A stretch of DNA of 33,918 nucleotides from an uncultured Candidatus Saccharibacteria bacterium (GCA_964353135.1 CAYGTV010000002.1:133204-167121); one strand, 5' to 3'. Positions 15,626 through 33,717 are shown, counted from the first letter of the stretch. The notes: generated by a model not told the origin, from the sequence alone. Translations and numbers: made by a program.

Positions 15626-15670
15626 GTTGCGGTAATTGTAACAGAAAAGCGGTGCGAATTGGGTGGTTTA

Positions 15671-15875: not shown

Positions 15876-15876
15876 A

Positions 15877-15914: not shown

Positions 15915-15921
15915 ACCTTTG

Positions 15922-17207: not shown

Positions 17208-17256
17208 CTAAAACAATAAACACCCTGACGGGTGTTTATTGTTTTAGTGCGGCCTG
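17199..17256. terminator. 27-bp perfect inverted repeat that includes the tRNA-Gly 3' acceptor strand
   Basis: CAGGCCGCACTAAAACAATAAACACCC-tgac-GGGTGTTTATTGTTTTAGTGCGGCCTG. Confidence 0.7.
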
Positions 17257-17364
17257 TTATATCTACCGGGGGTAGATATTGCCTGATCAACCCATAGTGT
17301 AGCGCTCACATAAACCGCAGCTCACGAGAGCTGGAAAACACACCCCCACGGGTGTTTTTCATTT

Positions 17365-17538
17365 TGTGGCCTTGAGCAACATGCTGGATGCATGTTGCGT
17401 GGTAATCGAAAGAGAGTGAGTATATCGCCCGGAACAAAGTGAGGACGATTCGAGCGTCGGGGTCGCGTCGCACAATAGTTTGGAGTCGTAAGACGAACAA
17501 AATACTGATGCAAAGGTGACTCGATTACCCCAGGCCGC
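17365..17538 (+). repeat. tRNA-associated folded element A (Gly-GCC ends)
   Basis: Inverted tRNA 3' end split by a hairpin (TGTGGCCT..GCAACATGC/GCATGTTGC-GT-GGTAATCGAAA); core homologous to 22661-22780; ends with an 18-nt exact copy TCGATTACCCCAGGCCGC. Confidence 0.8.
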
Positions 17539-17616
17539 TTTACCTACCCTCACCCGCACCGAAATAAATCTCACAACCCCCACGTATACTAGAATATATA
17601 CAAATAGTTAAAATAT

Positions 17617-18258
17617 ATGCAGACAAATCTACAATCTGGGCTAAGTGTTACCCGTATTATCGTAATTCTGGCCGCAATTGCTGTTTTGCTCGGGGTCTTG
17701 AGTATCTTTACTACCTCAGATGGACCCTCAGCCGCCACCCAACTCCTAGAAAATAACGCTGAAATGGAAGTAATCGAGGACATTATGGTTGATGATATGG
17801 GTGAAACCGTGACCGATTCAGCTGCGCAAGCTATAGAAAGTGAAATGATGGAAGATGAAATGGACATGAAGGATGATGATATGGATATAGGGTCAGAGAT
17901 GATGGATGATGCGCCAGAAACAGCATCAGCGCCCGTACCTGCCGCATCAGCTGGTACCTTTCAGCCATATAGTGCAGATAAACTGGCATTAGCAGACGAT
18001 GGTACTGTCGTACTATTTTTCCATGCTAATTGGTGCCCATCATGCCGTGGTTTAGAGAACGACATTAATGCTAGTTTGAGTGATATTCCCGCTGACACCC
18101 ACATTTTAAAGCTCGATTACGATACGCAGACTGAACTAAAGCGGAAATACGGCGTGGTTCGACAACATACCTTGGTCGTTGTGGATGCTAGTGGAAACGA
18201 AGTCAAAAAAATCACTGGACTGACAAATACGCTCGAGCAAGTAGTGAATCAACTCTAA
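17617..18258 (+). CDS. Membrane-anchored thioredoxin-like protein with Met/Asp/Glu-rich linker
   Basis: N-terminal TM; FHANWCPSCR active site. Confidence 0.88.
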   Translation: MQTNLQSGLSVTRIIVILAAIAVLLGVLSIFTTSDGPSAATQLLENNAEMEVIEDIMVDDMGETVTDSAAQAIESEMMEDEMDMKDDDMDIGSEMMDDAPETASAPVPAASAGTFQPYSADKLALADDGTVVLFFHANWCPSCRGLENDINASLSDIPADTHILKLDYDTQTELKRKYGVVRQHTLVVVDASGNEVKKITGLTNTLEQVVNQL

Positions 18259-18265
18259 AATAGCT

Positions 18266-19003
18266 ATGGAAACATTAGCTGTATCGTTTCTACTGCTAGC
18301 TTTCTTTTCTGGAGTACTGACAGTCCTGGCGCCATGTATCTTGCCGCTTTTACCGGTTATTATCGGTACCAGTGCCGGTGCCCGGAGTAGATATACGCCA
18401 TACATAGTGATTGGTTCACTATCTGCCTCGATTCTGGTATTTACCTACCTACTCAAGGCTAGTACCCTACTCATAGACATTCCGACGTCATTTTGGGCTT
18501 ATTTTTCTGGCTTAATCCTGATCCTGATTGGTTTCACGTTCACCTTCCCTACCATATGGAGCAAGGTGCCAGGTATGAACAAGCTTTCCCGGAGCGGAAA
18601 TGCCGTGGTGGGTAGTGGTTATACGAAAAAGAGCCTGTGGGGCGATATCACCATCGGTGCAGCGCTTGGACCAGTGTTTTCTAGCTGCAGCCCGACTTAT
18701 TTCCTGATCCTGGCAGCGGTCCTCCCTGCTAGTTTTGCTTTAGGTACTGTGTACTTACTAGTGTATACAGCTGGTTTAGCGTCTGTCCTCATGCTAATTG
18801 CCCTACTTGGTCAACGGTTTGTCGGGAATATTGCCTGGGCAGCTGATCCTCACGGTGGGTTCAAGCGTAGTTTAGGAGTCATCTTCCTACTGGTAGGCCT
18901 AGCCATCTTTACCGGACTAGATAAACAGTTTGAAGCCTTTATTCTAGACACTGGATTTAACACTGTTAATTTTGAAAACAGTCTCTTAGAAGGTGTCCTG
19001 TAG
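18266..19003 (+). CDS. ccdA: CcdA/DsbD-type transmembrane electron transporter
   Basis: APCILPLLP and FSSCSPT cysteines, about 6 TM, next to thioredoxin. Confidence 0.88.
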   Translation: METLAVSFLLLAFFSGVLTVLAPCILPLLPVIIGTSAGARSRYTPYIVIGSLSASILVFTYLLKASTLLIDIPTSFWAYFSGLILILIGFTFTFPTIWSKVPGMNKLSRSGNAVVGSGYTKKSLWGDITIGAALGPVFSSCSPTYFLILAAVLPASFALGTVYLLVYTAGLASVLMLIALLGQRFVGNIAWAADPHGGFKRSLGVIFLLVGLAIFTGLDKQFEAFILDTGFNTVNFENSLLEGVL

Positions 19004-19087
19004 ATAACTGTGTATAAGACTGGGGATATGGGGATAAAGGACAGGTGCATAACCTGTCCTTTATTTATATTTGGTATACTGTAAGGG
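18999..19087. promoter_or_regulatory. DnaA-box cluster, candidate oriC
   Basis: TGTAGATAA 18999, TGTGTATAA 19009, TGGGGATAT 19021, TGGGGATAA 19029, GGTGCATAA 19044 (consensus TGTGNATAA), followed by an AT-rich stretch. Confidence 0.6.
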
Positions 19088-19852
19088 TATTTCACGTGAA
19101 ATACAGTAAGACCTGCCACGTGAAACGTTTCATATGAAACAAAGTAATAAACAAGGAAAAAAGAACCAGGTAGGCGCTTTGGGTGAACAAATTACCGTTA
19201 ATTACCTTAAAAAACAGGGTTTTTTGGTGTTAGATACTAATTATTTGAAAAAATGGGGAGAAATCGACATTGTTGCACGGGAAACGTTGGAAAATAAGCA
19301 GATTATAAGGTTTGTAGAAGTTAAAACAGTTTCATATGAAACGAAAGCAGCGTTAGACTACGCTGTTACACATGAAACCTGGAATCCCGAAGATAATGTG
19401 CACTATAAAAAGATCCAACGCATGAATCGGGCGATAGAGTCCTGGTTGTCAGAAAACAATTGTGATCTGGATTGGCAGATCGATATTGCTGCTGTTCGGA
19501 TAGTTACACGTGAAAAGTTTGCTACCATAAAGTATATTCCTAACATTATCTTATAGTTCATCGCGCTGTGCCATGTGGAACAGGGAATATGTGTGCCACG
19601 TGAAACGTTTAAGTGATTGATTTAGGTTCTACTGGGTGCCGTGTTATGCTGGTTTCATATGGAACAAGACATCAACACTTTTTTAGAAAATCATAGTTCC
19701 TGGCAGCTTAGTGACAATACGCTGGTAGGTAACTGGAAACTGGCAGATTTTGCCCAGTTACGCCAAGTGGTGACACAGCTGTGTGACTTGGCAGATGAGC
19801 TCAACCATCACCCAACGGTGACCTATGGATACAACACGTTACACGTGGAAAC
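19088..19852. promoter_or_regulatory. Cluster of about 11 parS-like sites
   Basis: 16-mers resembling TGTTTCACGTGAAACA at 19088, 19112, 19126, 19271, 19328, 19364, 19502, 19567, 19592, 19651, 19837. Confidence 0.85.
19134..19556 (+). CDS. yraN: YraN/UPF0102 family putative endonuclease
   Basis: GALGE, YLKKQG, GEIDIVA, FVEVKT, IDIAAV. Confidence 0.9.
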   Translation: MKQSNKQGKKNQVGALGEQITVNYLKKQGFLVLDTNYLKKWGEIDIVARETLENKQIIRFVEVKTVSYETKAALDYAVTHETWNPEDNVHYKKIQRMNRAIESWLSENNCDLDWQIDIAAVRIVTREKFATIKYIPNIIL

Positions 19853-19934
19853 AACCACCCATGATGCTGGAAACCAGATAACACACAAGGACCTGGAACT
19901 GGCACGGAGTGTAAGTCAGATGGTGGGTGAGTAA
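19659..19934 (+). CDS. phhB: Pterin-4-alpha-carbinolamine dehydratase
   Basis: ADELNHHP, TTHDAG, ITHKDLELA. Confidence 0.88.
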   Translation: MEQDINTFLENHSSWQLSDNTLVGNWKLADFAQLRQVVTQLCDLADELNHHPTVTYGYNTLHVETTTHDAGNQITHKDLELARSVSQMVGE

Positions 19935-20090
19935 GCTCGCATTTTTTTCGTAGAGGTGGTATATTTTGCGGACTTTGGTAGCTGTGAATTATATTTCTGC
20001 TCCTAAGAAGAAATCAAAATATAGAGTCTATTTTCTGCTTCGCATTTCATGCTCAGATCGAAAATAGAAACGATTTTGCTTTTGCAAAAT

Positions 20091-20161
20091 CGGGGTGTAG
20101 CATAATGGTAGTGTACACGGTTTGGGACCGTGCGGCCCGGGTTCGATTCCCGGCTCCCCGA
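20091..20161 (+). tRNA. tRNA-Pro(TGG)
   Basis: CGGGGTG...CTCCCCG-A; CACGG-TT TGG GA-CCGTG; CCGGG-TTCGATT-CCCGG. U6-U67 mismatch in the acceptor stem. Confidence 0.9.
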
Positions 20162-20164
20162 CAA

Positions 20165-20206
20165 AATACAAAACAGCGTCAGACATGTCTGACGCTGTTT
20201 TGTATT
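20165..20206 (+). terminator. Palindromic terminator after tRNA-Pro
   Basis: AATACAAAACAGCGTCAGACATGTCTGACGCTGTTTTGTATT. Confidence 0.7.
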
Positions 20207-20221
20207 GTATACTTACCCGAT

Positions 20222-21100
20222 ATGGAACTGTGGTTTTGGGTAGCAGTAGGAGGAGCGGTCGTGTCTGGTATTAGCAACTTCTTTTTTAAAGTAGCTGCAA
20301 AAAACGAGTGTAATGCAGAGCTGTACATACTATATAGCTCACTCACTTCAATGGTTATTACTACTACATTACTCGTTGTATGGCCTCAGCAACTATTTGG
20401 CTTTGGCTGGATCGCTTTTGTGGTTTTTGTTGCTGGTATGACGTCTGCTTTAGCTGGCAGTCTCAAAGTGTATGCGTTGCGTTATATTGATTCAACTCTG
20501 TATTTCCCTTTATTTAAGTTAATAGTGCCGGCGTTAGCTATATGTATTGGTGTTACATTCTTTGAAGAATCATTTAGCGCAATTGAGTGGACAGGTTTGA
20601 TTGTTGGGTTGTTAGTGCCACTTATGCTGATTAACAGGTCAGAAAATAGTCGACAAGAGAATTTAAGGATGGGCTTATTGTTGATCTTAATAACAGGTAT
20701 TTTGTCGACAATAACGGCTGTTGCTGCAAAGTATGCAATTGTGGCTGAGGTGCCTGTAAATACAACGCTGCTTTTGACGGTTTTAGGGATTTCTCTAGGG
20801 GCGGTTTTCCTGATAGTGCGTAAGAATGGTGTGCGAAAAATACCTGTACTGATTAAGGAAGAAACTACCAGTCTTTTGGTAAAGATAGCGGTACTTAGGT
20901 CAACCTTTATTGTTACCGGTGTCTGGGCAATGTTATATGCCTATTCACTTGGAGGGACCCTTTCGGTGGTCCAAACCATCCATTCCATGTATATCCTCAT
21001 CCCGATCGTTCTCGCCATCATTTTCTACAACGAACACTGGAACTTGCAAAAGGCAGCTGCGATCGCTCTGTCAGTTGTTTCGCTCGCGTTTTTAGGCTAG
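20222..21100 (+). CDS. EamA/DMT family transporter
   Basis: Start MELWFW at 20222 (the 20105 start lies within the tRNA); about 10 TM; paralog of 10169 and 22857. Confidence 0.88.
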   Translation: MELWFWVAVGGAVVSGISNFFFKVAAKNECNAELYILYSSLTSMVITTTLLVVWPQQLFGFGWIAFVVFVAGMTSALAGSLKVYALRYIDSTLYFPLFKLIVPALAICIGVTFFEESFSAIEWTGLIVGLLVPLMLINRSENSRQENLRMGLLLILITGILSTITAVAAKYAIVAEVPVNTTLLLTVLGISLGAVFLIVRKNGVRKIPVLIKEETTSLLVKIAVLRSTFIVTGVWAMLYAYSLGGTLSVVQTIHSMYILIPIVLAIIFYNEHWNLQKAAAIALSVVSLAFLG

Positions 21101-21181
21101 ACAAAGAGATTATTTATAGTACTTTGTTTGCAAGCGCTCGGATGCGCTGTTTTTTGAAACTGGTGTGCAGTGTTGCGCACC
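21017..21181 (+). repeat. Direct repeat copy 1 (EamA 3' end + promoter/leader); copy 2 at 23655-23819
   Basis: Near-identical DNA at offset 2638, including GCTAGACAAA..TTATTTATAGTACTTTGTTTGCAAGCGC..GGATGCGCTGTTTTTT..GGTGTGCAGTGTTGCGCACC. Confidence 0.9.
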
Positions 21182-21205
21182 CTTTACGTAAGATAGGAGA
21201 CGGAT

Positions 21206-21610
21206 ATGGGTGGTATGGACATGGCAGAGCTGGGGTCAATTCCAAAGTTTAATGGATTGACACCTTTTAAGCCCGATGATCTACCTGGTAATTTTCAGAA
21301 GTTGATGGATTCAGCTTTGATCGGTCGTGAGAATCAGGTCATGACCTGCATCAAGAGTTTCACCATTAGCGGCAAAACAACCGCTGTGGTGAAAGATAAG
21401 TGCAAGTCAGCACTTTTTGTTGCGTATCTGACGTACCTTCGTCACAACATGATCGCTGATTACCAATCAGGTAAGCCAGTTGAAATGAGCGACTATTGTC
21501 GTGAATTGGTGCTTCTTTACTTCGGTGAAGAATTTATGGATCACGAAGTGCCGACTGATCTAATGGAGCTAAATGCAATCATCCAAATTGAATGGAAACT
21601 AGCCGCGTAG
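21206..21610 (+). CDS. Hypothetical protein (cassette cargo)
   Basis: AGGAG SD; 134 aa; no family recognised. Confidence 0.65.
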   Translation: MGGMDMAELGSIPKFNGLTPFKPDDLPGNFQKLMDSALIGRENQVMTCIKSFTISGKTTAVVKDKCKSALFVAYLTYLRHNMIADYQSGKPVEMSDYCRELVLLYFGEEFMDHEVPTDLMELNAIIQIEWKLAA

Positions 21611-21640
21611 CGGCTTTCGAAACTCTGAAGGAGAACAAAG

Positions 21641-22525
21641 ATGGATTCTATGTGGAAATCTTTAATCGAACTTGAGGGGGCGATTGATGTTATGTGGGAA
21701 GAGCGTGCTGACATCAATTCAACTCTGTGCCACGATGCGCCAAGCCGGCTAGCTGTTATGGAGACACTGCAGCGTCTCGACAATGGTTCGCTTCGAGTCG
21801 CTGAACCTACGACCGTTGCAGACGGTCATTCAAATGCGACTCACTGGCAAGTAAACCAGTGGGTCAAGAAGGCTGTCTTACTGTCGTTTCGTTTGAACGA
21901 CATGGAACAAATTCCTGGCGGTCCTGGTAATTCAGGTTGGTGGGACAAAGTGCCTTCCAAGTTTGATGGCTGGGGGCCAAAGCAGTGGCGTGCGGCGGGA
22001 TTCCGGGCAGTGCCTGGATCCATCGTTCGTCGTTCGGCTTATATTGCCAAAGACGTCGTGCTCATGCCGTCATTTGTTAACCTTGGCGCCTATGTCGGTG
22101 AAGGGACGATGGTTGATGCTTGGGCCACAATTGGCTCATGTGCACAGATTGGCAAGAACTGCCATATCTCTGGTGGTGCCGGCATCGGTGGTGTGTTGGA
22201 ACCGATGCAAGCTGGTCCAACCATCATCGAAGACAACTGCTTTATCGGCGCTCGTTCAGAGGTGGTCGAAGGAGTGATTGTTCGCGAAGGCTCGGTTCTC
22301 GGTATGGGTGTGTTCATCGGCCAGTCGACTAAAATCGTCGATCGCGAGACTGGCAAGGTCATGTATGGCGAAGTACCACCATATTCGGTCGTGGTAGCTG
22401 GTTCTATGCCTTCACGTAGCGCACGCGACTCAGCGGAGGTTAATCTCTACTGTGCAGTGATTGTGAAAACAGTTGACGAGCGGACTCGCTCCAAAACTGG
22501 TATCAATGAGCTCTTGCGCGACTGA
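21641..22525 (+). CDS. dapD: 2,3,4,5-tetrahydropyridine-2,6-dicarboxylate N-succinyltransferase
   Basis: [40 protein letters not shown], hexapeptide repeats, [10 protein letters not shown] end; AAGGAG SD. Confidence 0.95.
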
Positions 22526-22572
22526 TTTGACCAAAGAAGAAAACAAAAGGTCCGGCGGAAATCCGCTGGGCC

Positions 22573-22650
22573 TTTTATCTGCCTTATTTTTATACTAAAG
22601 CCACCCAAGCAACCCCAATCATTGCTAATATAGAACCAACAATTTTGTAT
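22573..22650 (-). pseudogene. 3' remnant of the minus-strand EamA gene (copy of 24351-24428)
   Basis: Encodes YKIVGSILAMIGVAWVALV* versus YKIAGSILAMVGVAWLALI*; truncated exactly where element B begins. Confidence 0.85.
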
Positions 22651-22795
22651 GGAGAGCTGCGGGGAATCAAAAAGAGTGAATATATCGCTCGGACCAAAGG
22701 GAGGACGATTTGAGCGTCGGGGTCGCGTGGCACAGTAGATTCAAGACGAAGTCGTAGAATATACTGATGCAAAGGCGACCGACTCCCGGCTCCCC
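22651..22795 (+). repeat. tRNA-associated folded element B (Pro ends)
   Basis: Starts GGAGAGC..GGGAATC (inverted tRNA-Pro 3' end); core aligns with element A; ends CGACTCCCGGCTCCCC (15/16 match to the tRNA-Pro 3' end). Confidence 0.82.
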
Positions 22796-22856
22796 CTACA
22801 TAAAACAAACCAATGTCAGACATATTTAATGTTGTTTTGTATTGTATACTCGTAGG

Positions 22857-23738
22857 ATGGAACCTTGGTTTGTATTGGCCGTTGTAGCAGCAATAGTGGG
22901 TGGGATCCCGCCTTTTTTAGTTAAGGTGGCTGCCAAGCGTGACTACGACGCCGGCTTGTTTATTCTCCTTGGGTCAATTGCAAAAGCACTTATCATTGTT
23001 CCCCTTGTATTAGTTTGGGGAGATTGGGAGGTGTTTCATATTATTCCAGTACTCCTAGGTTTCTTGGTTGGTTTGGTGGCTGTGCAAGGCGCAATAATGC
23101 GAGTGCTAGCGTTGCGACATGTCGACGCGACTATTTATTTCCCACTAAACAAGGTGCTTTCTCCAGTTGTGGTTATTGCCGCCGGAATACTGCTATTTTC
23201 AGAATCATTTACATTTATGGAATGGTTAGGGCTTCTGGGTGGTATTTTTGTGCCTTTGTTACTAATTTCTCGGGGTGAGCATACAAGGCAGAGTAATTTG
23301 CGTGCTGGCTTGATTCTGATTGTTATTACAGCTTTAATCTCGGCATTTGGAGCTATCGTAAATAAATTTACTCTCGATACTTTTGCCGACACCGCACTAT
23401 GGATATTGGCCGGAAATGCTTGTGGAGCACTACTTGGTTCTCTGTATAAGTATTGGCGCACCCAGGGGAGTCTTGCCATGATCATACCGGGAATAAGGGT
23501 TACAGATGGTGTCATGATTAAATTGTCACTGGTTAGAGGCCTTTTGTTGATAGTTTCTTTGGGAAGTGGTTTGTATGCCTTGGCGCTTGGAGGTCCAGTT
23601 GGTATCGTATATACAATTGGAGCGTTATATATTTTGATTCCGATACTGTTGTCTATCATTTTCTACAACGAACACTGGAACCTACAAAAAGCCTTGGCAA
23701 TTGTTCTGTCAGTTGTTTCGCTCGCGTTTTTAGGCTAG
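22857..23738 (+). CDS. EamA/DMT family transporter
   Basis: Start MEPWF 6 nt after TATACT; paralog of 20222-21100 with near-identical 3' end. Confidence 0.88.
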   Translation: MEPWFVLAVVAAIVGGIPPFLVKVAAKRDYDAGLFILLGSIAKALIIVPLVLVWGDWEVFHIIPVLLGFLVGLVAVQGAIMRVLALRHVDATIYFPLNKVLSPVVVIAAGILLFSESFTFMEWLGLLGGIFVPLLLISRGEHTRQSNLRAGLILIVITALISAFGAIVNKFTLDTFADTALWILAGNACGALLGSLYKYWRTQGSLAMIIPGIRVTDGVMIKLSLVRGLLLIVSLGSGLYALALGGPVGIVYTIGALYILIPILLSIIFYNEHWNLQKALAIVLSVVSLAFLG

Positions 23739-23844
23739 ACAAATAAATTATTTATAGTACTTTGTTTGCAAGCGCTTGGATGCGCTGTTTTTTACAATTG
23801 GTGTGCAGTGTTGCGCACCTTTCACATTGAAAAGGAGTAAGAAT

Positions 23845-24312
23845 ATGAGCGGAGCATACATGTCAGTACGGGATTCAATCCCAGAGACGCTGGCGGATTT
23901 TGTCGCAAGACTTGATTCTGCCAATCCAGCACAAAACGCTGCACATTTGGTTGATGAGCTTGGTTTGTTTAACAAGCACATGGTTTCAGTGAACGAGGCT
24001 GAGGAACAAATCCAGTATCGTATCGCAGGTTTCACTACCACACGCGGTGGTCAGGTCGAACATGATCACCAGATTGGGTTTGACAAGCCTGGCACAGCAA
24101 AAGTCGCTGTGTTCCTAGAGAAGTTATCTATCATTCTCGGTGAAGACGAGTTTGAAATGACAACAAAGATGTTATTGGCCGCCAGAGCGTACTTCGGTGC
24201 TAATGAGACTGAGAGGGCAGCGATTGAGCGTCAGCTTTACGACAAACCACTCAATGCACTGATGCAAAGTGGGAGCGCAGTGGTTACCATCAAGCGCCCA
24301 AAGAGACATTGA
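23845..24312 (+). CDS. Hypothetical protein (cassette cargo)
   Basis: AAGGAG SD before ATG 23845; followed by a GC hairpin; no family recognised. Confidence 0.65.
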   Translation: MSGAYMSVRDSIPETLADFVARLDSANPAQNAAHLVDELGLFNKHMVSVNEAEEQIQYRIAGFTTTRGGQVEHDHQIGFDKPGTAKVAVFLEKLSIILGEDEFEMTTKMLLAARAYFGANETERAAIERQLYDKPLNALMQSGSAVVTIKRPKRH

Positions 24313-24367
24313 AAAGAGCCCGGCTGGATTGTTATCCTGCCGGGCCCTTGTTTTATCTGCCTTATTT

Positions 24368-25231: not shown

Positions 25232-25278
25232 GGATTGATTATATCCCAAGACTTTGTGCTTTTGTTATACTAGATAGA

Positions 25279-26202: not shown

Positions 26203-26214
26203 TAAATTGATTCT

Positions 26215-26787
26215 ATGGAATCACAATTTGTTTACATTGATGACTACGGTCTGCGAGGAACCAATTTCTATTGGCATAAGTATGAAGGCAAAGGCTTGAG
26301 TAAACAGGATGTTCTAGATGCTGGATTAACTAGCGATCGGGTACAGGTACATAAAGATATTATTGATTTACTGATTAGTATCAATAATAAATTTCAAGAA
26401 CGAGGCTATGTTATGTATATAAAAGAGGGTTATAGATCAAAATCTCTGTACGAAATCATGTATCAGCGAAGGGTAGAAAAGTTTGGCCAAGAAGAGACTG
26501 ACCGACTGATCAATATGAATGATATGCCTCATGCACAAGGATTGTCAGTTGATGTGGCACTTTGGAATCCAGAGACTGACGCAGAAGTGTTTATGCGAAA
26601 CGGAGAGGATGGGACTGACGCATTGTTTGTGGACTTTTATAAAGATAAAGAAGATGACAGTGCCCAGAAATACCAAGAATTACAGGAGTGGTTTATCGAT
26701 ATTATGCAGAATCATGGATTTCGATTGGGAACCAGGCGAGAGTATTTTCACTTTGATTATCGGCCAGATATGGAACGTAACTATTAG
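26215..26787 (+). CDS. D-Ala-D-Ala dipeptidase-like M15 peptidase (VanX/DdpX-like)
   Basis: EGYRS, PHAQGLSVDV, EYFHFDY. Confidence 0.8.
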   Translation: MESQFVYIDDYGLRGTNFYWHKYEGKGLSKQDVLDAGLTSDRVQVHKDIIDLLISINNKFQERGYVMYIKEGYRSKSLYEIMYQRRVEKFGQEETDRLINMNDMPHAQGLSVDVALWNPETDAEVFMRNGEDGTDALFVDFYKDKEDDSAQKYQELQEWFIDIMQNHGFRLGTRREYFHFDYRPDMERNY

Positions 26788-26790
26788 ATT

Positions 26791-27405
26791 ATGGAAAAGC
26801 GACAAGTATTTTATATTCATGGGGGAGAATCATATAAAAATTACCAAGATTTTATCGAGCGCTTAGAAACCAAAGATATTTGGGACTTACCATCGGCTGG
26901 GTCTTATAAAAAATGGACTAGTACATTTGCATCTGACTTGGGTGATTCATATGAAGTGTTCATGCCAGCAATGCCTAACAAGAACAATGCTAAATACGAA
27001 GAATGGAAAATATGGTTTGAGAAACACTTTGAGTACTTGCGTGATGATGTTGTTTTGATTGGGTGCTCTCTAGGTGCAATGTTCCTTACGAAATATTTTA
27101 CTGAAAATCGGGCACCATTTATGGTGCGTGAACTAATCATTATGGCCTGTCCGGTGCAAGATGGGACATTTTCAGATAAAGATTGTGGTGATTTTCTGAC
27201 CAATATTGAAGATTTACCTAAACTTTCTGGTAAAGCAAGAAAAATTACAATTATGCAATCAAAGGACGATTTTTTAGTACCATATGAACATGCCCTCAAA
27301 TACAAAGAAGCTCTACCAGAGGCAGAACTAGTGACATTTACCGATAAAAACCACTTTTTGGTCGAAGAGCTGCCTGAATTGGTAGAACGGATTAAAAGTC
27401 TGTAG
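26791..27405 (+). CDS. Alpha/beta hydrolase, RBBP9/YdeN family
   Basis: IHGG, GCSLG nucleophile, SKDD, NHF. Confidence 0.88.
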   Translation: MEKRQVFYIHGGESYKNYQDFIERLETKDIWDLPSAGSYKKWTSTFASDLGDSYEVFMPAMPNKNNAKYEEWKIWFEKHFEYLRDDVVLIGCSLGAMFLTKYFTENRAPFMVRELIIMACPVQDGTFSDKDCGDFLTNIEDLPKLSGKARKITIMQSKDDFLVPYEHALKYKEALPEAELVTFTDKNHFLVEELPELVERIKSL

Positions 27406-27453
27406 TAGACGATTAGCGCCCCACCAAATAGAATTGGTGGGGCTGCTTTGTCT

Positions 27454-27822
27454 TTAGTGGGCGGTGATTGTGAGACAAGGCTTGTCATGGAGCGTCACAT
27501 GGATTGTAAGATCCTGCTCTTCCAGGCGACACTTCGCGAGCAGGTCCGCAATCTCTTTTTTGAGATCGCCGAAATCGCTCATTTTGAACTTAACCCGCCT
27601 TGGTCGCATTTCCGGAGCAAGAGAGAACAAGCGGTTTGTTTCATGAGGTCGGCAGATGTAGGGGGTACGCAAATCATCGTGACCATTGGTTTTTCTGACT
27701 TTGCCAACTATTTGGCGGTCATTATCTACCAGAATCAAGTAGTCTCCAATATTTAGTGTTTCAGTTGCTCTGCGCAACCCGCTGGCAGATGTTTTACGGA
27801 TAGCAATTTGCGGTTCTGACAT
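27454..27822 (-). CDS. Hypothetical protein
   Basis: GAGGA SD, upstream TTGACA, convergent hairpin at 27416-27448; basic 122-aa orphan. Confidence 0.5.
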   Translation of the reverse strand: MSEPQIAIRKTSASGLRRATETLNIGDYLILVDNDRQIVGKVRKTNGHDDLRTPYICRPHETNRLFSLAPEMRPRRVKFKMSDFGDLKKEIADLLAKCRLEEQDLTIHVTLHDKPCLTITAH

Positions 27823-27973
27823 TACATTCGTTCCTCATAAGGGTTATATCTACCGGATACTTTGCCTCATATATGGCTCATTTGTCAAATATTAAGATGT
27901 TTGAGGCCACATTAGTGTTTTTATCATGAAAGATTTAGCTACTTCACCCGTCTTCGAGTATAATGGTCACAAC

Positions 27974-28582
27974 ATGGCAGGGGAGCAATCAACTGAAAAC
28001 CTGAGTGGCCACGAAGCACGGTTCCTCGCAGCATATGACGAATACAACGACGCGCTCTTTCGACACGCGTGTATGCGTATCAGCGATCGTGAAAAAGCGA
28101 TTGATTTGGTGCACGACACGTATACAAAAGTTTGGTCGTATGTCAGAAAAGGCTACGAAATCGAACAATTCCGTCCGTTTTTATACAAAGTACTCAATAA
28201 CCTGATTATTGATACCTATCGGAAGAAAAAAGAATCTTCCTTGGACGCGTTGCTCAATATCGAAGGAGTGGACGAAGGTTCGTTTGACGAATTGTCGGAA
28301 AGCACAGTCGAGGCGCTGGCCGCCACCATTGATGGCCGCAAAGCCTTTGAACTGATGGATGAAATTCCAGACGTATACAAAGAGGTCCTCATCATGCGGT
28401 TTGTCGACGGACTAGGCCCCAAAGAAATGAGTGAACTGACCGAGGAGAAAGAAAACGTCATTTCAGTCAGGATTCACAGAGGGCTCAAGTTGCTCAGGCA
28501 AAAAATCGAGGCTCAAGACGAATTTGCAGATGAAAAGCGCAAGGCTACCGCGCGAAAAAAGACAGCCGACAAAAATAATTAA
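27974..28582 (+). CDS. ECF (sigma-70 group 4) RNA polymerase sigma factor
   Basis: Region 2 (AIDLVHDTYTKVW, FRPFLYKVLNNLIID) and region 4 HTH (VISVRIHRG). Confidence 0.9.
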   Translation: MAGEQSTENLSGHEARFLAAYDEYNDALFRHACMRISDREKAIDLVHDTYTKVWSYVRKGYEIEQFRPFLYKVLNNLIIDTYRKKKESSLDALLNIEGVDEGSFDELSESTVEALAATIDGRKAFELMDEIPDVYKEVLIMRFVDGLGPKEMSELTEEKENVISVRIHRGLKLLRQKIEAQDEFADEKRKATARKKTADKNN

Positions 28583-28583
28583 T

Positions 28584-30005
28584 ATGAAACGCTTTAGCGA
28601 ACAACTGCATAAACAAGCACAGACTGTGAAACTCAAAAAGAGTGAACAGGCTGATTTGCGTGAGCGACTAGTTTCATACATGGAATACCACCCGTTGCCA
28701 GCATCTATGAAGGCAGCAGACGTTTCTTATAATAAAAAAGCGACCCGTACATCGGTGTTGACCGACTCATTTGCACAATACGCTATCCCGTACCAGGCAC
28801 TATTTAAATTTGGAAGTGTGGCTGCAGTGTTCATTGTATTGATTGTGCCATTTATGGCTGAGCGAACAGTTCCTGGTGATACGCTGTACGCGGTCAAGGT
28901 GCAGTTTAATGAAGAGGTCCGAAGCACCCTGACGTGGGGAAGTTATGAAAAAGTGGAATGGGAGACCGAGCGTCTCAATCGCCGAATCGCCGAAGCCAGG
29001 CTACTAGCTGACGAAGGGCTCCTCACCCCAGAAGCCGAAGCCGAAGTAGCTGCTGCGGTAAAGGTACATAGTGATAACGCAAAACGCGAGATCGAAGTAT
29101 TGCGTGCATCAGATGCTGACGAGGCTACGATCGCGACCATCGCTTTTGATTCTAGTTTGCAGGTGCAGGCTCAGGTGCTACAAGAAGGGGTTGATAGCAC
29201 GGCCTCAAGCAGTAGTGCACACGGTCTGATTTCAGAAGCAATTGATGAGTCTCTAGAAAAACCTGTTTCTACCGAAGTAGCCGCTGTACCAGCCTATGGA
29301 AAATTGATGGCACGGGTTGAGTTAAACACGACTCGGGTGCAAGAACTACGTGATTCACTTGCTGGAGTAGTTACAGATCAAGGGCTGGTAGACGTGAACC
29401 GTCGAATTGACGATATTAATCGAGCAATTACCGACGCAGTAACACTAGCGCAGAACCCTGATACAGAGCTGGAAGCACGAACCGCATTGGTTGATGTGCT
29501 AACGCGAACCCAAAAACTGATCGTATTTATGACTGACCTCGAGGTACGAGAACAAGTGGGGATTGAAGCAGTGGTACCAGTTGTGTTGACCAACGATGAG
29601 ATGACAATCGATCGATCAAAACGAACGAGTGAATTGAACGAGGCAATCGTGAAAATTACATCAGTGATAGAGGCAGATACGGCCAGCGCACTCACAGAAA
29701 AACTGATTGACACTAACGAAAAACTGGTAGCAGCCCAGCAACAGCTGTCTGCGACAACTAACTACAAGGAGTTTGTTCAGTTGAGCAACAACGCCCTGGC
29801 TTTGGCTAAAGATAGTTTGCAACTGGTGGCCAATGAGGGTTACAAAATCCCAGAGCCGGCTGATGTGACAGCGACTTCAACCGAAGCATCGGTCGAAGAC
29901 ACAGCCACTTCAACTGATGAAGTGATTGAAGGTGAAGGAGGGGTACCGGTTGCTGTATCTACAACTACATCTAGTACTACACCAGTTGAAATTGACACTC
30001 TCTAA
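28584..30005 (+). CDS. Putative anti-sigma factor, single TM with DUF5667-like extracytoplasmic domain
   Basis: Starts 1 nt after the sigma stop; TM followed by PGDTLYAVK...E...RRIAEA; Thr/Ser-rich tail. Confidence 0.8.
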   Translation: MKRFSEQLHKQAQTVKLKKSEQADLRERLVSYMEYHPLPASMKAADVSYNKKATRTSVLTDSFAQYAIPYQALFKFGSVAAVFIVLIVPFMAERTVPGDTLYAVKVQFNEEVRSTLTWGSYEKVEWETERLNRRIAEARLLADEGLLTPEAEAEVAAAVKVHSDNAKREIEVLRASDADEATIATIAFDSSLQVQAQVLQEGVDSTASSSSAHGLISEAIDESLEKPVSTEVAAVPAYGKLMARVELNTTRVQELRDSLAGVVTDQGLVDVNRRIDDINRAITDAVTLAQNPDTELEARTALVDVLTRTQKLIVFMTDLEVREQVGIEAVVPVVLTNDEMTIDRSKRTSELNEAIVKITSVIEADTASALTEKLIDTNEKLVAAQQQLSATTNYKEFVQLSNNALALAKDSLQLVANEGYKIPEPADVTATSTEASVEDTATSTDEVIEGEGGVPVAVSTTTSSTTPVEIDTL

Positions 30006-30020
30006 ACCCTGGAGTATATT
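29992..30020 (+). promoter_or_regulatory. Sigma-70 promoter
   Basis: TTGACA-17 bp-TATATT. Confidence 0.7.
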
Positions 30021-30026
30021 GCGTAT

Positions 30027-30131
30027 ATGACACAGACGTATACCAACCAAGCGATCCTAGAGATAAACCAGTCATGGTTTGCCCTGTCAGTGATCGTAAT
30101 TCTCGCCTTTGGCGGGTCGGTTGGTATATAG
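30027..30131 (+). CDS. Putative leaderless 34-aa hydrophobic peptide (or structured sRNA)
   Basis: ATG at the predicted +1; MTQTYTNQAILEINQSWFALSVIVILAFGGSVGI*; terminator follows. Confidence 0.45.
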   Translation: MTQTYTNQAILEINQSWFALSVIVILAFGGSVGI

Positions 30132-30148
30132 GTCCATAATCTACTGCC

Positions 30149-30182
30149 ACAAGACCCGCCATCCGGCGGGTTTCTTGTTTTT
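30149..30182 (+). terminator. Intrinsic terminator
   Basis: ACCCGCC-atcc-GGCGGGT followed by a T-rich tail. Confidence 0.75.
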
Positions 30183-30308
30183 AAGGATTTGTTGGTCGGT
30201 GGGAAAATAAATAATCATTTATTTTCCCACCGACTCGCAACAATGCGAGCGGATCACTGCCCGAGCGCGGAAGAGTGATATGTAAACCCATAACAATGAG
30301 GAAATAAT

Positions 30309-30485
30309 ATGGGACTTCAAACAGATGGAGGTGCCAGCAATACTGCTGGCAGTGACCTGAGAGGCCAGCAATTGAGTGTGGCTTGTGGGTCGTGCACATT
30401 TTGTCTTGATGTGCTCGCTGGGGTGGATCCAAAAACAATGCCCCCGAGGCGTGCGCTACAATGCCATCGAGACAGAATACAATAG
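30309..30485 (+). CDS. Small Cys-motif protein (58 aa, CxxCxxC)
   Basis: GAGGA SD; MGLQTDGG...ACGSCTFCLD...LQCHRDRIQ*; shorter than any ORF listed in the track. Confidence 0.45.
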   Translation: MGLQTDGGASNTAGSDLRGQQLSVACGSCTFCLDVLAGVDPKTMPPRRALQCHRDRIQ

Positions 30486-30827
30486 CGCACAGGCAGGAAA
30501 AGGTTGTTGATGCCTTTAATTACCCTGCATAGGTAGTAAGGGCGCGGAATTATCCGCGCCCTTGTTTTGTATATTTTTAATTTAGTGATATTATTTTTGT
30601 ATGCATATTGCATCTACAGCTTTTTATTTCTTTTGGTTTACCACGCGAGAAACTCGGGCTGATTTGATGTAGCACTACTCACTTTACAAAATGCCGCGGG
30701 TTTCTCACTCAGAGACCCGCGGCATTTTTGTTGGCCGAAGGAAATTGTGTTGGTAAAAGCAATTTCCTTCGGCTCGCAAATAAGCGAGTCGTGTAACTTC
30801 ACAACGAAGAAAAAAGGAGAGTTCTTT

Positions 30828-31031
30828 ATGTCAGGTTCAGGTTTTGTTCCTAAAGGTGATTTGCCGCAACAACAAAATGTCAATTCTGGTCAAGCACAAC
30901 GACAGATGCCTACTATGAAACCGAGTCGTTCTGATTCGGAAAAACCTCAATCAAGCCGTAGGTTTGGGCCAGAGATATATCGCCAGGAATTTGGTGATAT
31001 AGGTAACCCTCTTGCTGGCAGGGTAAAATGA
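30828..31031 (+). CDS. Small hydrophilic orphan protein (67 aa)
   Basis: AAGGAG SD; followed by AAGCGCG..CGCGCTTTT terminator. Confidence 0.5.
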   Translation: MSGSGFVPKGDLPQQQNVNSGQAQRQMPTMKPSRSDSEKPQSSRRFGPEIYRQEFGDIGNPLAGRVK

Positions 31032-31128
31032 GCCAGCTAAGCGCGTCCCACCGGGGCGCGCTTTTCTTTTGCAACCTTACTCACATTTGTTACTCTATAG
31101 ACACTTATTAATATAGATATTTCTGATT

Positions 31129-32238
31129 ATGTTTGAAACCGCTTCAAGTGCCCTAGCTCAGTACATCCCAGAAGCAATGGTAAGCCTACCATTGCTTGGA
31201 ATAGTAGATATCCAAAAGCTGGTTATCGCGATTGCTTTGTTTACAATTATTTCGCTTGCAACTTGGTTGCTGCGCCTAGTAGTGCTGGTTCGGCTCGAAT
31301 CACTAGCTAAAAAAACTAGTAAACAATTTGACGATACGTTTGTGGAAGCAATTCAGACCATCCGTCCTTGGGTGTACAACTTGATTGCATTTTACGTGGC
31401 GTTACAGCTCTACACGCTGCCAAGTATGGCTGATCAGATTATTACTGGCTTGTTGTACTTTGCCTTTGTATGGCAGGGAATCCAGGTGATCAAATGCTTT
31501 ATCCGCTACGCCATCACTAATTTTGTCGAGAAAGATGAAGATGGTGACGGAGTGATCGACCCGGCGGCCGCGACAGCATCTGATTTGATCACACTGATTA
31601 GTAGCATCGTGCTGTGGGTTCTAGGGGTTATTTTTGTGTTGTCCAACATCGGGATTGAGGTGACTTCGTTGATTGCCGGTTTAGGGATCGGTGGTATTGC
31701 AATCGCGTTTGCCTTGCAAGGAGTCCTTGGTGATCTGTTCGCTTCATTCTCGATTTACTTTGATAAACCATTTCGGATTGGAGACTTTATTGTGATTGGG
31801 GCTGATTCAGGAACGGTGGAAAAAATCGGGATTAAATCAACCCGCATCCGCACTCTACAAGGGGAGGAGTTGGTGGTTAGTAACGCTGAGTTGACCACGG
31901 TTCGGGTCCAGAACTTTAAAAAGATGCAGCAGCGACGGATTGCTTCCCAGTTTGGCATCACGTATGAAACACCGCAGGATAAGGTGCAGATGGTTACAGG
32001 GGTTGTACAACGGATTTTCGAAGATATCAGCGGCTGTCACCTAGACCGTGTGCACTTTACTACGTTTGCTGACTCGGCATTATTGTTTGAGGTGGTGTAT
32101 TTTATTGAGTCTTCGGAATATGTAGATTTCCTTAATGCCCAACAGCAGTTCAACTTTACGTTGATGGAACGTTTTGCTGAAATTGGTATTGATTTTGCCT
32201 ATCCAACGCAGACAATTTACACCAAGACAGTCAGTTAG
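31129..32238 (+). CDS. mscS: Small-conductance mechanosensitive channel
   Basis: AGLGIGGIAIAFALQ, KPFRIGD, GTVEKIGIKST, FAYPTQ. Confidence 0.93.
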   Translation: MFETASSALAQYIPEAMVSLPLLGIVDIQKLVIAIALFTIISLATWLLRLVVLVRLESLAKKTSKQFDDTFVEAIQTIRPWVYNLIAFYVALQLYTLPSMADQIITGLLYFAFVWQGIQVIKCFIRYAITNFVEKDEDGDGVIDPAAATASDLITLISSIVLWVLGVIFVLSNIGIEVTSLIAGLGIGGIAIAFALQGVLGDLFASFSIYFDKPFRIGDFIVIGADSGTVEKIGIKSTRIRTLQGEELVVSNAELTTVRVQNFKKMQQRRIASQFGITYETPQDKVQMVTGVVQRIFEDISGCHLDRVHFTTFADSALLFEVVYFIESSEYVDFLNAQQQFNFTLMERFAEIGIDFAYPTQTIYTKTVS

Positions 32239-32245
32239 TAGATTT

Positions 32246-32283
32246 AGAAAAACCGGCGCACCAATTGGTGCGCCGGTTTTTCT
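32246..32283. terminator. Bidirectional terminator (perfect 38-bp palindrome)
   Basis: AGAAAAACCGGCGCACCAATTGGTGCGCCGGTTTTTCT. Confidence 0.8.
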
Positions 32284-32289
32284 GTGTAC

Positions 32290-33381
32290 TTATTCCGCTG
32301 ATTGTAGAATTGAAAGTAAAAATGGTGTGAGCGTCTCGGCAAATATCTGCGACCGGAACGCTAGATTTCCATCCAGGTTTTCTGCCAGTGTGAATCCGGT
32401 TTCTTCAAGCATAGTTCGATGAACATGCGAGAGGGTGATGGCTCGCAGGCTACCAGCCCCGTCTACACTATCGTCTCCTCGGGTGGCGATCATACCGATT
32501 ACTTCACCATCGTCGTTAAGCACTGGGCCACCTGATGACCCTTGGGCACCCACCACACTGCCTCTGATTGAAAACACGTCAGCTCTGTTTGATCCAAAAG
32601 TATATAATTCAGAAATACTAGTTTCAGCTGAGCGTGGGATCAGGTCAACCGACGCGCCGCGAGCGAGTAAGTCGCCAGCTGGGTATCCTGCAACTACAAT
32701 GTCTGCATTACGAATTCGTGTAGACAAGAGTTCGCTTGAGAATGGTAAGGCAGGGAACGTCTCAGGTACCGGCGTACCGGCGACAGTTCCGTCTACATAG
32801 AGTAGGGCGTAGTCACGTTCGCCAGTCCCCATCGGTTGCGCGTCGTTGAGTACAGCGGCATTTTCCAGTACCCAGGCAGGCGGGATGTAGAGCAGTGAGG
32901 CAGTGTACCGCGGGCTAGCTGGGTTTCCATTACGAACAATGCATTCTGCACTACCGTCTTCTTCTGCTTGGCTGAGGAGTAAAAATTGAGCTACATGTGC
33001 ATTGGTCATAATGACGCCATCTGCGTCGATAAAGAAACCGGTTCCAGTTGTCGTTTTAATGTATTCGGTTGTACGAAACGTACAGAAAATGTTCACAATG
33101 GCATCAACTGGATTAGTAGCAGTTGGTTCACTTAATCCGTCAGCTCCAACCACAGTTGCTTGTTGGTACTGAGCACTCTGTTTGAGTAGATCGGGAATGG
33201 TAGAAAACGCGCTTGGCAATGTTGCCATGATTGAATTGTCAGTTGACGACTCTTCCATCATAAACACATCAGGTTCGTATGATGTATCGGTAAATAAATT
33301 GGTGACTTGGATCGCTAAAGTGTTACTAAATGCGATGTACGCCGTAAAAATAGCGACGAGGGTATCGGTTAAAAATGACAT
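32290..33381 (-). CDS. Trypsin-like (S1) serine protease, exported, no PDZ domain
   Basis: GTGF, TNAHV, DYALL, GSSGGPV catalytic triad motifs. Confidence 0.9.
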   Translation of the reverse strand: MSFLTDTLVAIFTAYIAFSNTLAIQVTNLFTDTSYEPDVFMMEESSTDNSIMATLPSAFSTIPDLLKQSAQYQQATVVGADGLSEPTATNPVDAIVNIFCTFRTTEYIKTTTGTGFFIDADGVIMTNAHVAQFLLLSQAEEDGSAECIVRNGNPASPRYTASLLYIPPAWVLENAAVLNDAQPMGTGERDYALLYVDGTVAGTPVPETFPALPFSSELLSTRIRNADIVVAGYPAGDLLARGASVDLIPRSAETSISELYTFGSNRADVFSIRGSVVGAQGSSGGPVLNDDGEVIGMIATRGDDSVDGAGSLRAITLSHVHRTMLEETGFTLAENLDGNLAFRSQIFAETLTPFLLSILQSAE

Positions 33382-33475
33382 TGAAATAAGTATAGCATCG
33401 AGGCCTTTCTAGTTTGGTTGAAAATAGATGAGGTTGTGATAGGATTGTTGAACTTTGATGAATCAGTCATCAATT

Positions 33476-33546
33476 GCGGGTGTGGTTTAGTGGTAAAACG
33501 ACTGCCTTCCAAGCAGTAGTCGGGGGTTCGATTCCTCTCACCCGCA
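33476..33546 (+). tRNA. tRNA-Gly(TCC)
   Basis: GCGGGTG/CACCCGC-A; ACTGC-CT TCC AA-GCAGT; GGGGG-TTCGATT-CCTCT. Confidence 0.92.
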
Positions 33547-33590
33547 CAGGTACTAGAGAGCCGGTTTTATACCGGCTTTTCTAGTGCCTG
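33547..33590 (+). terminator. Hairpin after tRNA-Gly(TCC)
   Basis: CAGGTACTAGAGAGCCGGT...ACCGGCTTTTCTAGTGCCTG. Confidence 0.6.
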
Positions 33591-33593
33591 AAA

Positions 33594-33717
33594 GGGTGAA
33601 GTAAGCAAACTGCTTTGCTTACGTGGGGAATCGAAAGACAGAGCGATGTTTACGAACGAGTCGGGGTCGAGAAAAATTTCTGAAAGAAATTTATTCGTGA
33701 CCGATTCCCCTCACCCG
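33594..33717 (+). repeat. tRNA-associated folded element C (Gly-TCC ends)
   Basis: GGGTGA-[GTAAGCAAA/TTTGCTTAC]-GT-GGGGAATCGAAAG ... GTCGGGGTCGAG ... TCGTGAC-CGATTCCCCTCACCCG. Confidence 0.8.

Follow-up and report, generated by a model that had tools for sequence, protein, structure and literature searches.

The stretch of DNA analyzed here, referred to as the window, comprises 33,918 nucleotides of a contig deposited under an uncultured Candidatus Saccharibacteria bacterium (GCA_964353135.1, CAYGTV010000002.1:133204-167121); its source genome, G000, amounts to 990,937 bp in 11 contigs, is 99.9% complete, and contains 35 transfer RNA (tRNA) genes and a transfer-messenger RNA (tmRNA) gene. ARAGORN and Rfam locate four tRNA genes in the window, one on the minus strand (Arg-TCG) and three on the plus strand (Gly-GCC, Pro-TGG and Gly-TCC), and each is followed on its own strand by a non-coding element of related design, here called D, A, B and C, respectively. 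The best explanation for these elements is that they belong to a previously undescribed superfamily of non-coding cassettes residing in the T-loops of tRNA and tmRNA genes of Paceibacteria-type (Parcubacteria) members of the candidate phyla radiation (CPR).

Anatomy of the elements in the window

Read along the tRNA strand, a unit consists of the tRNA gene, an intrinsic terminator, an antisense arm (antiS), AAAAG, the core, GGGGTCG, a long hairpin, GTGAC, and a second copy (S′) of the tRNA 3′ end (S; positions 56–73). The antiS arm is the complement of positions 73 to 54, and is either contiguous or split past position 64 by a small hairpin and GT into an acceptor part (antiAcc) and a T-arm part (antiT). 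Units span roughly 190–260 bp, of which the core takes up ~110 nt, and contain no open reading frames (ORFs); the intrinsic terminator lies 0–3 nt 5′ of antiS, a second terminator is often found 3′ of S′, and no promoter is predicted for the element, which sits behind the terminator. CCA is mostly not encoded in the host tRNA genes.

Element A follows tRNA-Gly(GCC) (17137–17208, plus strand; CCA not encoded), and immediately 5′ of it an intrinsic-terminator-like hairpin and T run are predicted (17340–17355, plus). The left arm (17366–17410, plus) opens with antiAcc, GTGGCCT (17366–17372), which is complementary to the acceptor 3′ strand with one G–U pair, continues with a 9-bp hairpin (17376–17398) and GT, and closes with antiT, GGTAATCGAA (17401–17410), complementary to tRNA positions 54–64. 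The conserved core (17411–17520, plus; 143.9 bits) comprises a left domain, GTCGGGGTCG at 17457–17466, a long right hairpin, and GTGAC at 17516–17520; it is followed by S′, TCGATTACCCCAGGCCGC (17521–17538, plus), which repeats positions 55–72 of tRNA-Gly(GCC) and, over positions 56–73, is identical at 17 of 18 nucleotides. Element B (22651–22795, plus; 141 bits), whose host is tRNA-Pro(TGG) (20091–20162, plus), lacks the small hairpin: antiS is contiguous at 22651–22668, the core (22669–22779) ends in GCGAC, and S′ (22780–22795) matches tRNA-Pro 56–73 at 15 of 18 nucleotides. Element C (33594–33717, plus; 28.5 bits) represents a short-core subtype and is separated from its host, tRNA-Gly(TCC) (33476–33547, plus), by a terminator hairpin recognized by reading the sequence (33548–33593, plus). 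Its antiAcc (33594–33599), hairpin (33601–33622), GT and antiT (33625–33635) are followed by GTCGGGGTCG at 33660–33669, GTGAC at 33697–33701 and S′ at 33702–33717, and its closest paralogue is the copy behind the tmRNA gene.

Element D (15651–15920, minus strand), delimited by sequence reading and an nhmmer search with D, lies behind tRNA-Arg(TCG) (15921–15993, minus) and runs in the order terminator, small hairpin, short antisense arm, core, ...GTGACC / ...CTGACC, and decayed S′; the antisense arm pairs with “CAC” of the tRNA end and with the AAAGG flank. A sequence-only reading of this DNA had placed the four elements here with the anatomy described, B without its first hairpin, and had pointed to three compensatory differences between A and B; inspection confirms the former, and all three differences are present in the copy alignment. 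The same reading took D for a degenerate member of the family. D belongs instead to a second subfamily, for which the nhmmer search returned copies behind Lys-CTT, Leu-GAG, Arg-CCT and Glu-TTC, and in which the antisense arm pairs only with the final 3–4 tRNA bases and about six bases of flank.

Both arms track the host tRNA

We scored the arms of 51 non-redundant copies of the main core type (type 1) from G000 and its relatives, 43 of which have a same-strand upstream tRNA gene within the locus. In 98% of these 43 elements S′ starts with C at position 56. Identity of S′ to the tRNA then falls from 0.98 to ~0.6 toward position 73, by abrupt truncations and not by scattered substitutions; the acceptor part of S′ is cut short in about a third of copies, including the best-scoring one (Lys, 6/18), and the direct repeat amounts to 6–19 nt of tRNA. 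The antiS arm is complementary to the tRNA at ~0.9 of positions. The targets comprise tmRNA and no fewer than 20 isoacceptors. The observation that both ends follow the host tRNA thus extends from the window to more than 100 copies from many genomes. As in tRNA-integrating islands, a direct repeat of the tRNA 3′ segment bounds the insert and the gene is restored, and the C56 boundary, the identity block and the many targets together correspond to the attL/attR geometry of T-loop-integrating elements.

Where substitutions set S and S′ apart, antiS fits S at 33 positions, S′ at 16, both at 13 and neither at 8, a tally that covers 24 of 38 listed elements and comes from a noisy script with a few doubtful loci. 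At the tRNA-Leu-CAA locus L071 the T-loop reads CAAGT in S and CGATT in S′. That antiS mostly complements S, and that the two T-loops differ at L071, fits an arrival of S and antiS together, with S′ as the old tail. AntiAcc equals the tRNA's own 5′ acceptor strand, and a 7-bp acceptor-like stem can form; minimum free energy (MFE) folds of tRNA plus element choose either S:antiS or antiS:S′, and behind 12 genes antiS is calculated to pair with the real tRNA at −25 to −38 kcal/mol.

Copies in the source genome

In the source genome, nhmmer queried with A, B and C one at a time, and then with an iterated profile, finds 15 matches; for each, the nearest upstream gene is a same-strand tRNA gene at a distance of 39–2495 nt. 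One more copy lies behind the tmRNA gene, with an S′ identical at 18/18 nucleotides. A covariance model (R1) built from 11 G000 copies likewise gives 15 matches at E up to 1. A unit is present, always on the tRNA strand, behind 20 of the 36 tRNA/tmRNA genes; the claim of the sequence-only reading that every tRNA locus has one holds within the window (4/4) and fails genome-wide. The covariance-model scan that it suggested, run on this genome and on relatives, gave matches mostly linked to tRNA genes, termini that match the neighboring tRNA, and strong covariation.

Two further core types share the layout of the main type. The short or composite core (C/type 2) is found behind Gly-TCC, tmRNA, Asp, Arg-TCG (element D), Lys-CTT, Leu-GAG and Arg-CCT. 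Behind Ala-TGC there is an “Ala-type” core (G000:C1:289103-289206) with the same architecture as the main type; its sequence (...GGTATACTG followed by a TGTAA-loop hairpin) cannot be aligned with type 1, and further such copies occur at L076 (G088), L079 (G019) and L044 (14900–15100; G002). The Ala-type may be a separate family with the same design.

Three copies found by nhmmer and R1 do not adjoin a tRNA gene: G000:C1:187947-188092 (type 2), C1:140763-140855 (Ala-type) and C2:232494-232633 (weak type 1). They lie 5–6 kb from the nearest tRNA gene or at a contig end. At G000:C4:40732-41108 ARAGORN makes a second, permuted tmRNA call that could be false, and L011 378–504, which takes in the 3′ end of the tmRNA together with the C-type element behind it, scores 27 bits against the Rfam permuted-tmRNA model (gathering score 47); the latter match probably arises from the element repeating pieces of the tmRNA T-arm and acceptor.

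The sense strand conserves a three-way junction

Folding of the 11 G000 copies with RNAalifold yields a three-way junction as the predicted consensus, and compensatory changes are seen at 22 of its 32 pairs. The helices are antiT:S′ stacked on GGTCG:TGACC, a variable left domain, and the long right hairpin, and the unpaired motifs AAAAG, GGGGTCG and GTGAC are conserved. Among 61 copies from at least 40 genomes, both-sided changes occur in 29 of the 32 modeled pairs; 92.7% of cells are paired as compared with 76.1% in shuffles, none of 500 of which reach the observed value, and with 34–46% when partners are slid, in an alignment that was itself fitted to the model. G–U/U–G outnumber A–C/C–A combinations by 118 to 27, or by 72 to 27 with the single conserved G–U omitted, which indicates folding of the strand with the tRNA sense. 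Energies of single sequences distinguish neither the two strands nor DNA from RNA (z = −3.7 for RNA sense, −3.9 for DNA sense and −4.5 for RNA antisense). Of 71 copies, 28 contain the heptamer GCGAAGC and 55 contain CGAAG; subtype 1a has no GCGAAGC. The GCGAAGC mini-hairpin is extraordinarily stable as DNA and occurs in single-strand replication origins (PMC13037366).

Distribution and controls

Within the genus, R1 matches occur in 76 of 128 genomes at 1–13 copies each, and across an even sample of the order in 35 of 151 genomes and 32 of 131 genera; in the other families of the order, 10 of 11 loci show tRNA, terminator, antiS, core and S′. A sample of 150 genomes from the rest of the phylum gave two weak matches with the same architecture, behind tRNA-Phe and tRNA-Leu, the former with an S′ that takes in an encoded CCA.

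For wider scans we used a sequence pattern that fits 26 of 71 known copies. At least 120 metagenome stretches match it. Among 81 matches in 80 metagenome loci, 33 have an upstream same-strand tRNA gene and 27 an S′ of at least 14/18; the remainder, about half of the matches listed, are mostly chance hits in GC-rich coding DNA, and no free or permuted form was recognized among the matches listed. Named genomes contributed 73 places, 19 of low and 54 of high GC content, the former mostly under the titles Candidatus Paceibacteria, Kaiserbacteria, Nomurabacteria, Parcubacteria and Patescibacteria. An upstream same-strand tRNA gene is present for 17 of the 19 low-GC CPR matches, whereas a tRNA gene with a matching end is present for 0 of the 54 high-GC chance matches. 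This contrast, together with the tRNA linkage of every profile match, excludes chance as an explanation.

With Rfam 15, only tRNA and tmRNA pass the gathering threshold, and sub-threshold matches are microRNA-hairpin models on terminator palindromes. Element A has no blastn match in phage or plasmid collections, and the sequence pattern, with the sensitivity given above, matches no viral contig. The literature searched, at the level of abstracts and without supplementary tables, holds no description of such elements; the sequence-only reading knew of no named family with this design, in agreement with the negative Rfam searches.

Presence, absence and tandem arrays

Units differ between orthologous loci. 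The tRNA-Lys-TTT gene is followed by a plain terminator in G121 and G013, by a type-1 unit in G000, by two tandem Ala-type units in G088, and by yet another combination in G019; the terminators of the G088 locus resemble those of G000 as judged by eye. Behind tRNA-Gln in G162, tandem units have different cores, and tandem pairs also occur in G061, G055, G192 and G088. A tree built only from core columns shows a Val-TAC clade that extends over many genomes and includes the copies at Leu-TAG, Gly-TCC, Met, Ala and Val-GAC; six G000 copies, each on a different tRNA, group in a clade of their own. This pattern would result from recent retargeting or else from gene conversion between copies already in place; the G000 clade contains left arms both with and without the hairpin, which favors conversion.

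Serine-recombinase islands form a second layer

In the source genome, B and the Val-TAC copy lie 2.5 kb and 1.6 kb, respectively, from their own tRNA genes, and the interposed genes encode proteins of ordinary kinds (EamA, a DapD-like enzyme, a peptidase and a NUDIX protein). In all relatives with longer gaps, the gene of a large serine recombinase adjoins either the tRNA 3′ end (G114, G069, L185) or the far end of the gap (L136, L113), and a remnant of the last 3–9 tRNA bases precedes the cassette terminator. The islands in G114, G069 and L136 have short repeats of their own and are nested beside the cassette. The island at tRNA-Arg(TCT) (locus L103; G000:C2:63496-70252, outside the window) measures 6.7 kb and is bounded by the 9-bp repeat GGGGCACCA. 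Its genes are for a large serine recombinase of 508 aa, with an ORF that runs into the tRNA end, for an HUH Rep (PF23343/RepSA-like) and for an OLD-family ATPase/TOPRIM nuclease; two more ORFs have no Pfam match. The displaced terminator follows the second repeat copy, and there is no structured core at the end of this island. The recombinase islands are a second, independent layer that inserts between tRNA and cassette. We consequently reject the serine recombinase as a part of the element, given the islands' own 4–9-bp tRNA-end repeats and the coreless G000 island.

Large serine recombinases occur in 94 of the 128 genus genomes, with up to eight each, in size classes of ~430–480 and 500–600 aa. 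They are strikingly numerous for genomes of ~1 Mb, and several abut tRNA 3′ ends. G000 itself encodes a single tyrosine recombinase, a single large serine recombinase and a single HUH Rep, and profile searches of this 99.9%-complete genome gave no reverse transcriptase (RT), IS110 (PF01548), TnpB or Y1 transposase. The sole tyrosine recombinase domain resides in a 312-aa ORF at window ~63–578 (G000:C2:133266-133781), at least 15 kb from any element and with no adjoining tRNA gene; the protein is presumably Xer-like.

Other features of the window

Between tRNA-Gly(GCC) and the terminator of A, region 17209–17339 (plus strand) contains a terminator palindrome that is perfect, has 26-bp arms and takes in the tRNA acceptor strand, a second small hairpin, and a spacer of ~60 nt. 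A first antiAcc copy lies at ~17247–17255 (TGCGGCCT, 39 nt past the tRNA gene). The region resembles a left module that survives from an older unit after loss or replacement of its core. The 2.5-kb interval between tRNA-Pro and B (20163–22650, plus) contains a terminator, an EamA transporter gene, a 134-aa ORF and a DapD-like acyltransferase gene. The terminator and EamA gene found after tRNA-Pro (20163–21100) recur after B (22796–23738); the two proteins are 41% identical, and the terminator after B is a degenerate version of the one after tRNA-Pro. The DNA from tRNA-Pro to B thus includes a second, diverged copy of the native flank, perhaps a foreign allele or an old duplication. Directly 5′ of tRNA-Gly(GCC), at 16458–17123, a 221-aa ORF encodes an N-terminal helix-turn-helix (HTH_23/HTH_3) and an uncharacterized C-terminal part.

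A proposed target-restoring cassette acting as a folded single strand

tRNA genes are classic landing sites of mobile DNA. The boundary at C56, the restored tail and terminator, the choice of tRNA and tmRNA genes as targets, and the tandem arrays and presence differences are together the trace expected of a target-restoring integrative element. Double-strand att sites do not explain the antisense arm and the covarying core, which suggests that a folded single strand is the active form. DNA is favored over RNA because a terminator precedes the unit and no promoter is predicted for it, because antiS tracks S and not S′, and because mini-hairpin motifs known from DNA are present. Based on these observations, we tentatively propose, at a little less than an even chance, that the elements constitute miniature integrative cassettes of the tRNA T-loop, of a new kind that encodes no protein and whose folded single strand does the work.

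According to this proposal, a unit would comprise a replacement 3′ end S (positions 56–73), a terminator, antiS (positions 54–73), and the ~110-nt three-way-junction core ending in GTGAC; 3′ of the unit would lie S′, which is the gene's former 3′ end, and in many cases its former terminator. An excised or imported single strand would fold with S paired to antiS; this duplex would rebuild a copy of the target beside the conserved core, in the manner of attC and of the CTX-phage attP hairpin, and a trans-acting enzyme would recombine the folded strand with a chromosomal T-loop between T55 and C56. Insertion would be harmless, since the cassette brings its own tRNA tail and terminator. This is close to the non-autonomous, attC- or miniature inverted-repeat transposable element (MITE)-like tRNA-targeting element of the sequence-only reading, which still leads; presence/absence, tandem arrays, and the restored 3′ end and terminator speak for it. 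Mobility by site-specific recombination, a fold formed by single-stranded DNA, the enzyme and the matching of both arms to a new tRNA are what we infer.

Several points weigh against such a cassette. No enzyme is tied to the elements in surveys of the source genome and the genus: serine recombinases are not enriched with the element (58 of 76 bearing genomes as compared with 36 of 52 without, kin not being independent), G088 has eight element copies and no serine recombinase match, Rep is present in only 12 of the 128 genus genomes, and the recombinase islands, with their own 4–9-bp repeats, cross over at the last tRNA bases and not in the T-loop. Four contig-level DNA runs, in which unitigs break at tRNAs and repeats and loose ends come from related organisms, gave no excised form, circle junction, or same-population empty/filled pair. 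Gene conversion of old residents can account for the G000 clade without recent movement. We know of no mechanism by which both arms would acquire a new 18-nt target; template switching, with the terminator palindrome as its site, is one possibility. Order-wide conservation of structure would be expected of an RNA gene no less than of an att site, and the fitting of the alignment to the model inflates both the pairing and the G–U counts.

A serious, if less probable, rival is that the elements are structured non-coding RNA genes riding on tRNA loci: read-through from the strong tRNA promoter would yield an antiS-core-S′ transcript, the closing stem of which would mimic the coaxial acceptor/T helix, so that RNase P and RNase Z could trim its ends, and the core would serve, for example, in protein binding, catalysis or tRNA-related regulation. 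Strong covariation, the sense-strand G–U excess, the kept unpaired motifs, order-wide conservation, the frequent second terminator after S′, the potential acceptor-like stem, and independence of any recombinase are all consistent with an RNA gene. Its transcription would have to pass the intrinsic terminator just before antiS with no promoter predicted beyond it; moreover, a tRNA-like end is not required, as judged by the truncated S′ acceptor part in about one third of copies, and a pure RNA gene need not match its neighbor, whereas antiS follows the real tRNA and not S′. The least probable of the alternatives is a cis-acting device of the tRNA gene, in which antiS would prolong the stem of the terminator as far as the 3′ half of the tRNA and so influence termination, pre-tRNA 3′ processing or read-through, and S′ would compete for antiS to free the tRNA. 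The MFE folds and the strong calculated antiS–tRNA pairing behind 12 genes fit this, but 16 of the 36 G000 genes manage without a unit and many relatives have 0–2, orthologous tRNA-Lys genes work with plain terminators, and the conserved 110-nt core is left unexplained. The cis RNA controlling pre-tRNA processing that the sequence-only reading offered as its second option is weakened by the same counts and by the position behind a terminator with no predicted promoter.

Two DNA-based alternatives also account for part of the data. A folded top strand that recruits primase or RNA polymerase, akin to single-strand initiation (ssi) or single-strand origin (sso) signals and left by, or satellite to, rolling-circle islands with an HUH Rep and a serine recombinase, seems improbable to us. 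Islands with Rep (PF23343) and large serine recombinase do occur at tRNA 3′ ends in G000 and G069, the fold is strand-specific, and GCGAAGC/CGAAG mini-hairpins are typical of G4-type origins and ssiA (PMC13037366). However, the Rep island of G000 ends without such a core, Rep is found in 12 genomes against 76 of 128 for the element, the islands in G114, G069 and L136 merely nest beside the cassette with short repeats of their own, subtype 1a has no GCGAAGC, and an origin leaves antiS and S′ unexplained. It is even less probable that the elements are inert scars, with S′ as an attR remnant, the core as the conserved end of lost islands, and copies homogenized by gene conversion. Decay of S′ by truncation, the clustering of G000 cores by genome, and the lack of a linked enzyme would agree with scars; inert DNA, on the other hand, would not keep 29 of 32 pairs by compensatory changes across an order, unit size is uniform, no intermediates with island genes were seen, and different core subtypes share one architecture.

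Within the cassette proposal, a bolder version, which we consider rather doubtful, is a nucleic-acid-programmed insertion that needs no protein of its own: the antisense arm would act as guide and the sense arm as copy of the 18–20-nt target, for retargeting, each arm would take on the tail of a new tRNA by copying (a switch of template at the terminator palindrome is one conceivable route), and ubiquitous host enzymes would insert the folded strand, taken up by naturally competent cells, at T55/C56. If this holds, 200 nt of non-coding DNA could colonize every tRNA gene of a lineage.

Whichever explanation applies, a gene-less cassette of ~200 bp occupies over half of the tRNA/tmRNA genes in a 1-Mb genome, and the tRNA 3′ flanks of Paceibacteria are organized, layered insertion sites, first for the cassette and then for serine-recombinase islands. 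If mobile, the cassette would be the smallest target-restoring integrative element known to us and a candidate for host-enzyme-driven or nucleic-acid-guided insertion; if an RNA gene, it would constitute a widespread new class of structured RNA in organisms with very few. The model also lets annotators explain many “orphan tRNA 3′ halves”.

Comparison with known systems

Several known identities were considered and rejected. A T-box leader is at odds with the absence of an Rfam T-box match, with complementarity to positions 54–73, and with a location 3′ of tRNA genes. A retroviral-type primer-binding site would require a CCA complement, but pairing runs into the gene flank and no RT is encoded; hammerhead and other known ribozymes have no Rfam match, and group I and II introns have neither a match nor the right end motifs.

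The 150–180-nt scaffolds of IS110 bridge RNA and IS200/IS605 omega RNA resemble the cassette in having flanking variable sense and antisense segments that match the target. The two cassette arms differ: both represent one 18-nt stretch, and they base-pair together where the segments of those scaffolds occupy open loops; this pairing, and the absence of PF01548 from the genome, led us to reject a bridge RNA. MITEs and cis-mobilizable elements (CIMEs) are likewise small, non-coding, multi-copy, and presumably moved in trans, whereas for the cassette no autonomous parent was found in the genomes surveyed, the termini derive from the target and are no transposase-binding inverted repeats, and there is no fixed short target-site duplication. 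A MITE or palindrome-associated transposable element (PATE) was rejected given ends that vary with each tRNA, a repeat of 6–19 nt of tRNA, and no Y1, TnpB or IS110 genes. The ssoA and G4-type ssi origins share with the cassette a strand-specific fold of 130–200 nt, in the cassette presumably of DNA, with GCGAAGC-type mini-hairpins; the cassette, in contrast, is chromosomal, tRNA-linked, and equipped with target-matched arms.

Large-serine-recombinase islands occupy the same genes in the same genomes, often directly adjacent to the cassette, an example of the type being the ssrA (tmRNA) islands of Dehalococcoides (PMC3146451). They are several kb long, encode a recombinase with or without Rep, have 4–9-bp end repeats that do not start from C56, and lack a structured core.

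With integron attC and CTX attP the cassette shares imperfect inverted arms around a variable or structured center, conservation of one-strand structure over sequence, and a crossover at the start of the 3′ arm, beside a GTT-type motif; its strand-specific covariation and DNA mini-hairpin motifs hint at recombination of folded single-stranded DNA of the same kind. The arms differ, being 18–20-nt copies of the host tRNA as compared with a 7-bp RYYYAAC/GTTRRRY or a dif-like core, and the cassette has no IntI or cassette ORF and a target other than attI or dif. An attC site proper was rejected, since there are no R″/R′ (RYYYAAC...GTTRRRY) or L″/L′ sites with extrahelical bases, the arms are tRNA-specific 18–20-mers with the inner ends ...CGAA / GTGAC-C, and by context the lone tyrosine recombinase is at least 15 kb away and the elements follow tRNA genes and not cassette ORFs.

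Also close in design are genomic islands and prophages of the tyrosine-integrase type that integrate in the T-loops of tRNA and tmRNA genes, for which K. P. Williams reportedly described sublocation classes. Like these, the cassette targets tRNA and tmRNA genes, has an identity block from the T-loop to the 3′ end, supplies a new 3′ end while displacing the old one as a direct repeat, and forms tandem arrays. Every well-understood mobile element of tRNA genes that we know of brings its own recombinase, whereas the cassette measures only ~200 bp and has no integrase or any other gene, nearby recombinase genes belonging to nested islands with their own repeats; it further differs in its antisense copy of the target, its covarying core, and the use of one core family for more than 20 tRNAs. 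We provisionally class the cassette as a variant of tRNA-targeting integrative elements, with a real chance of being categorically new.

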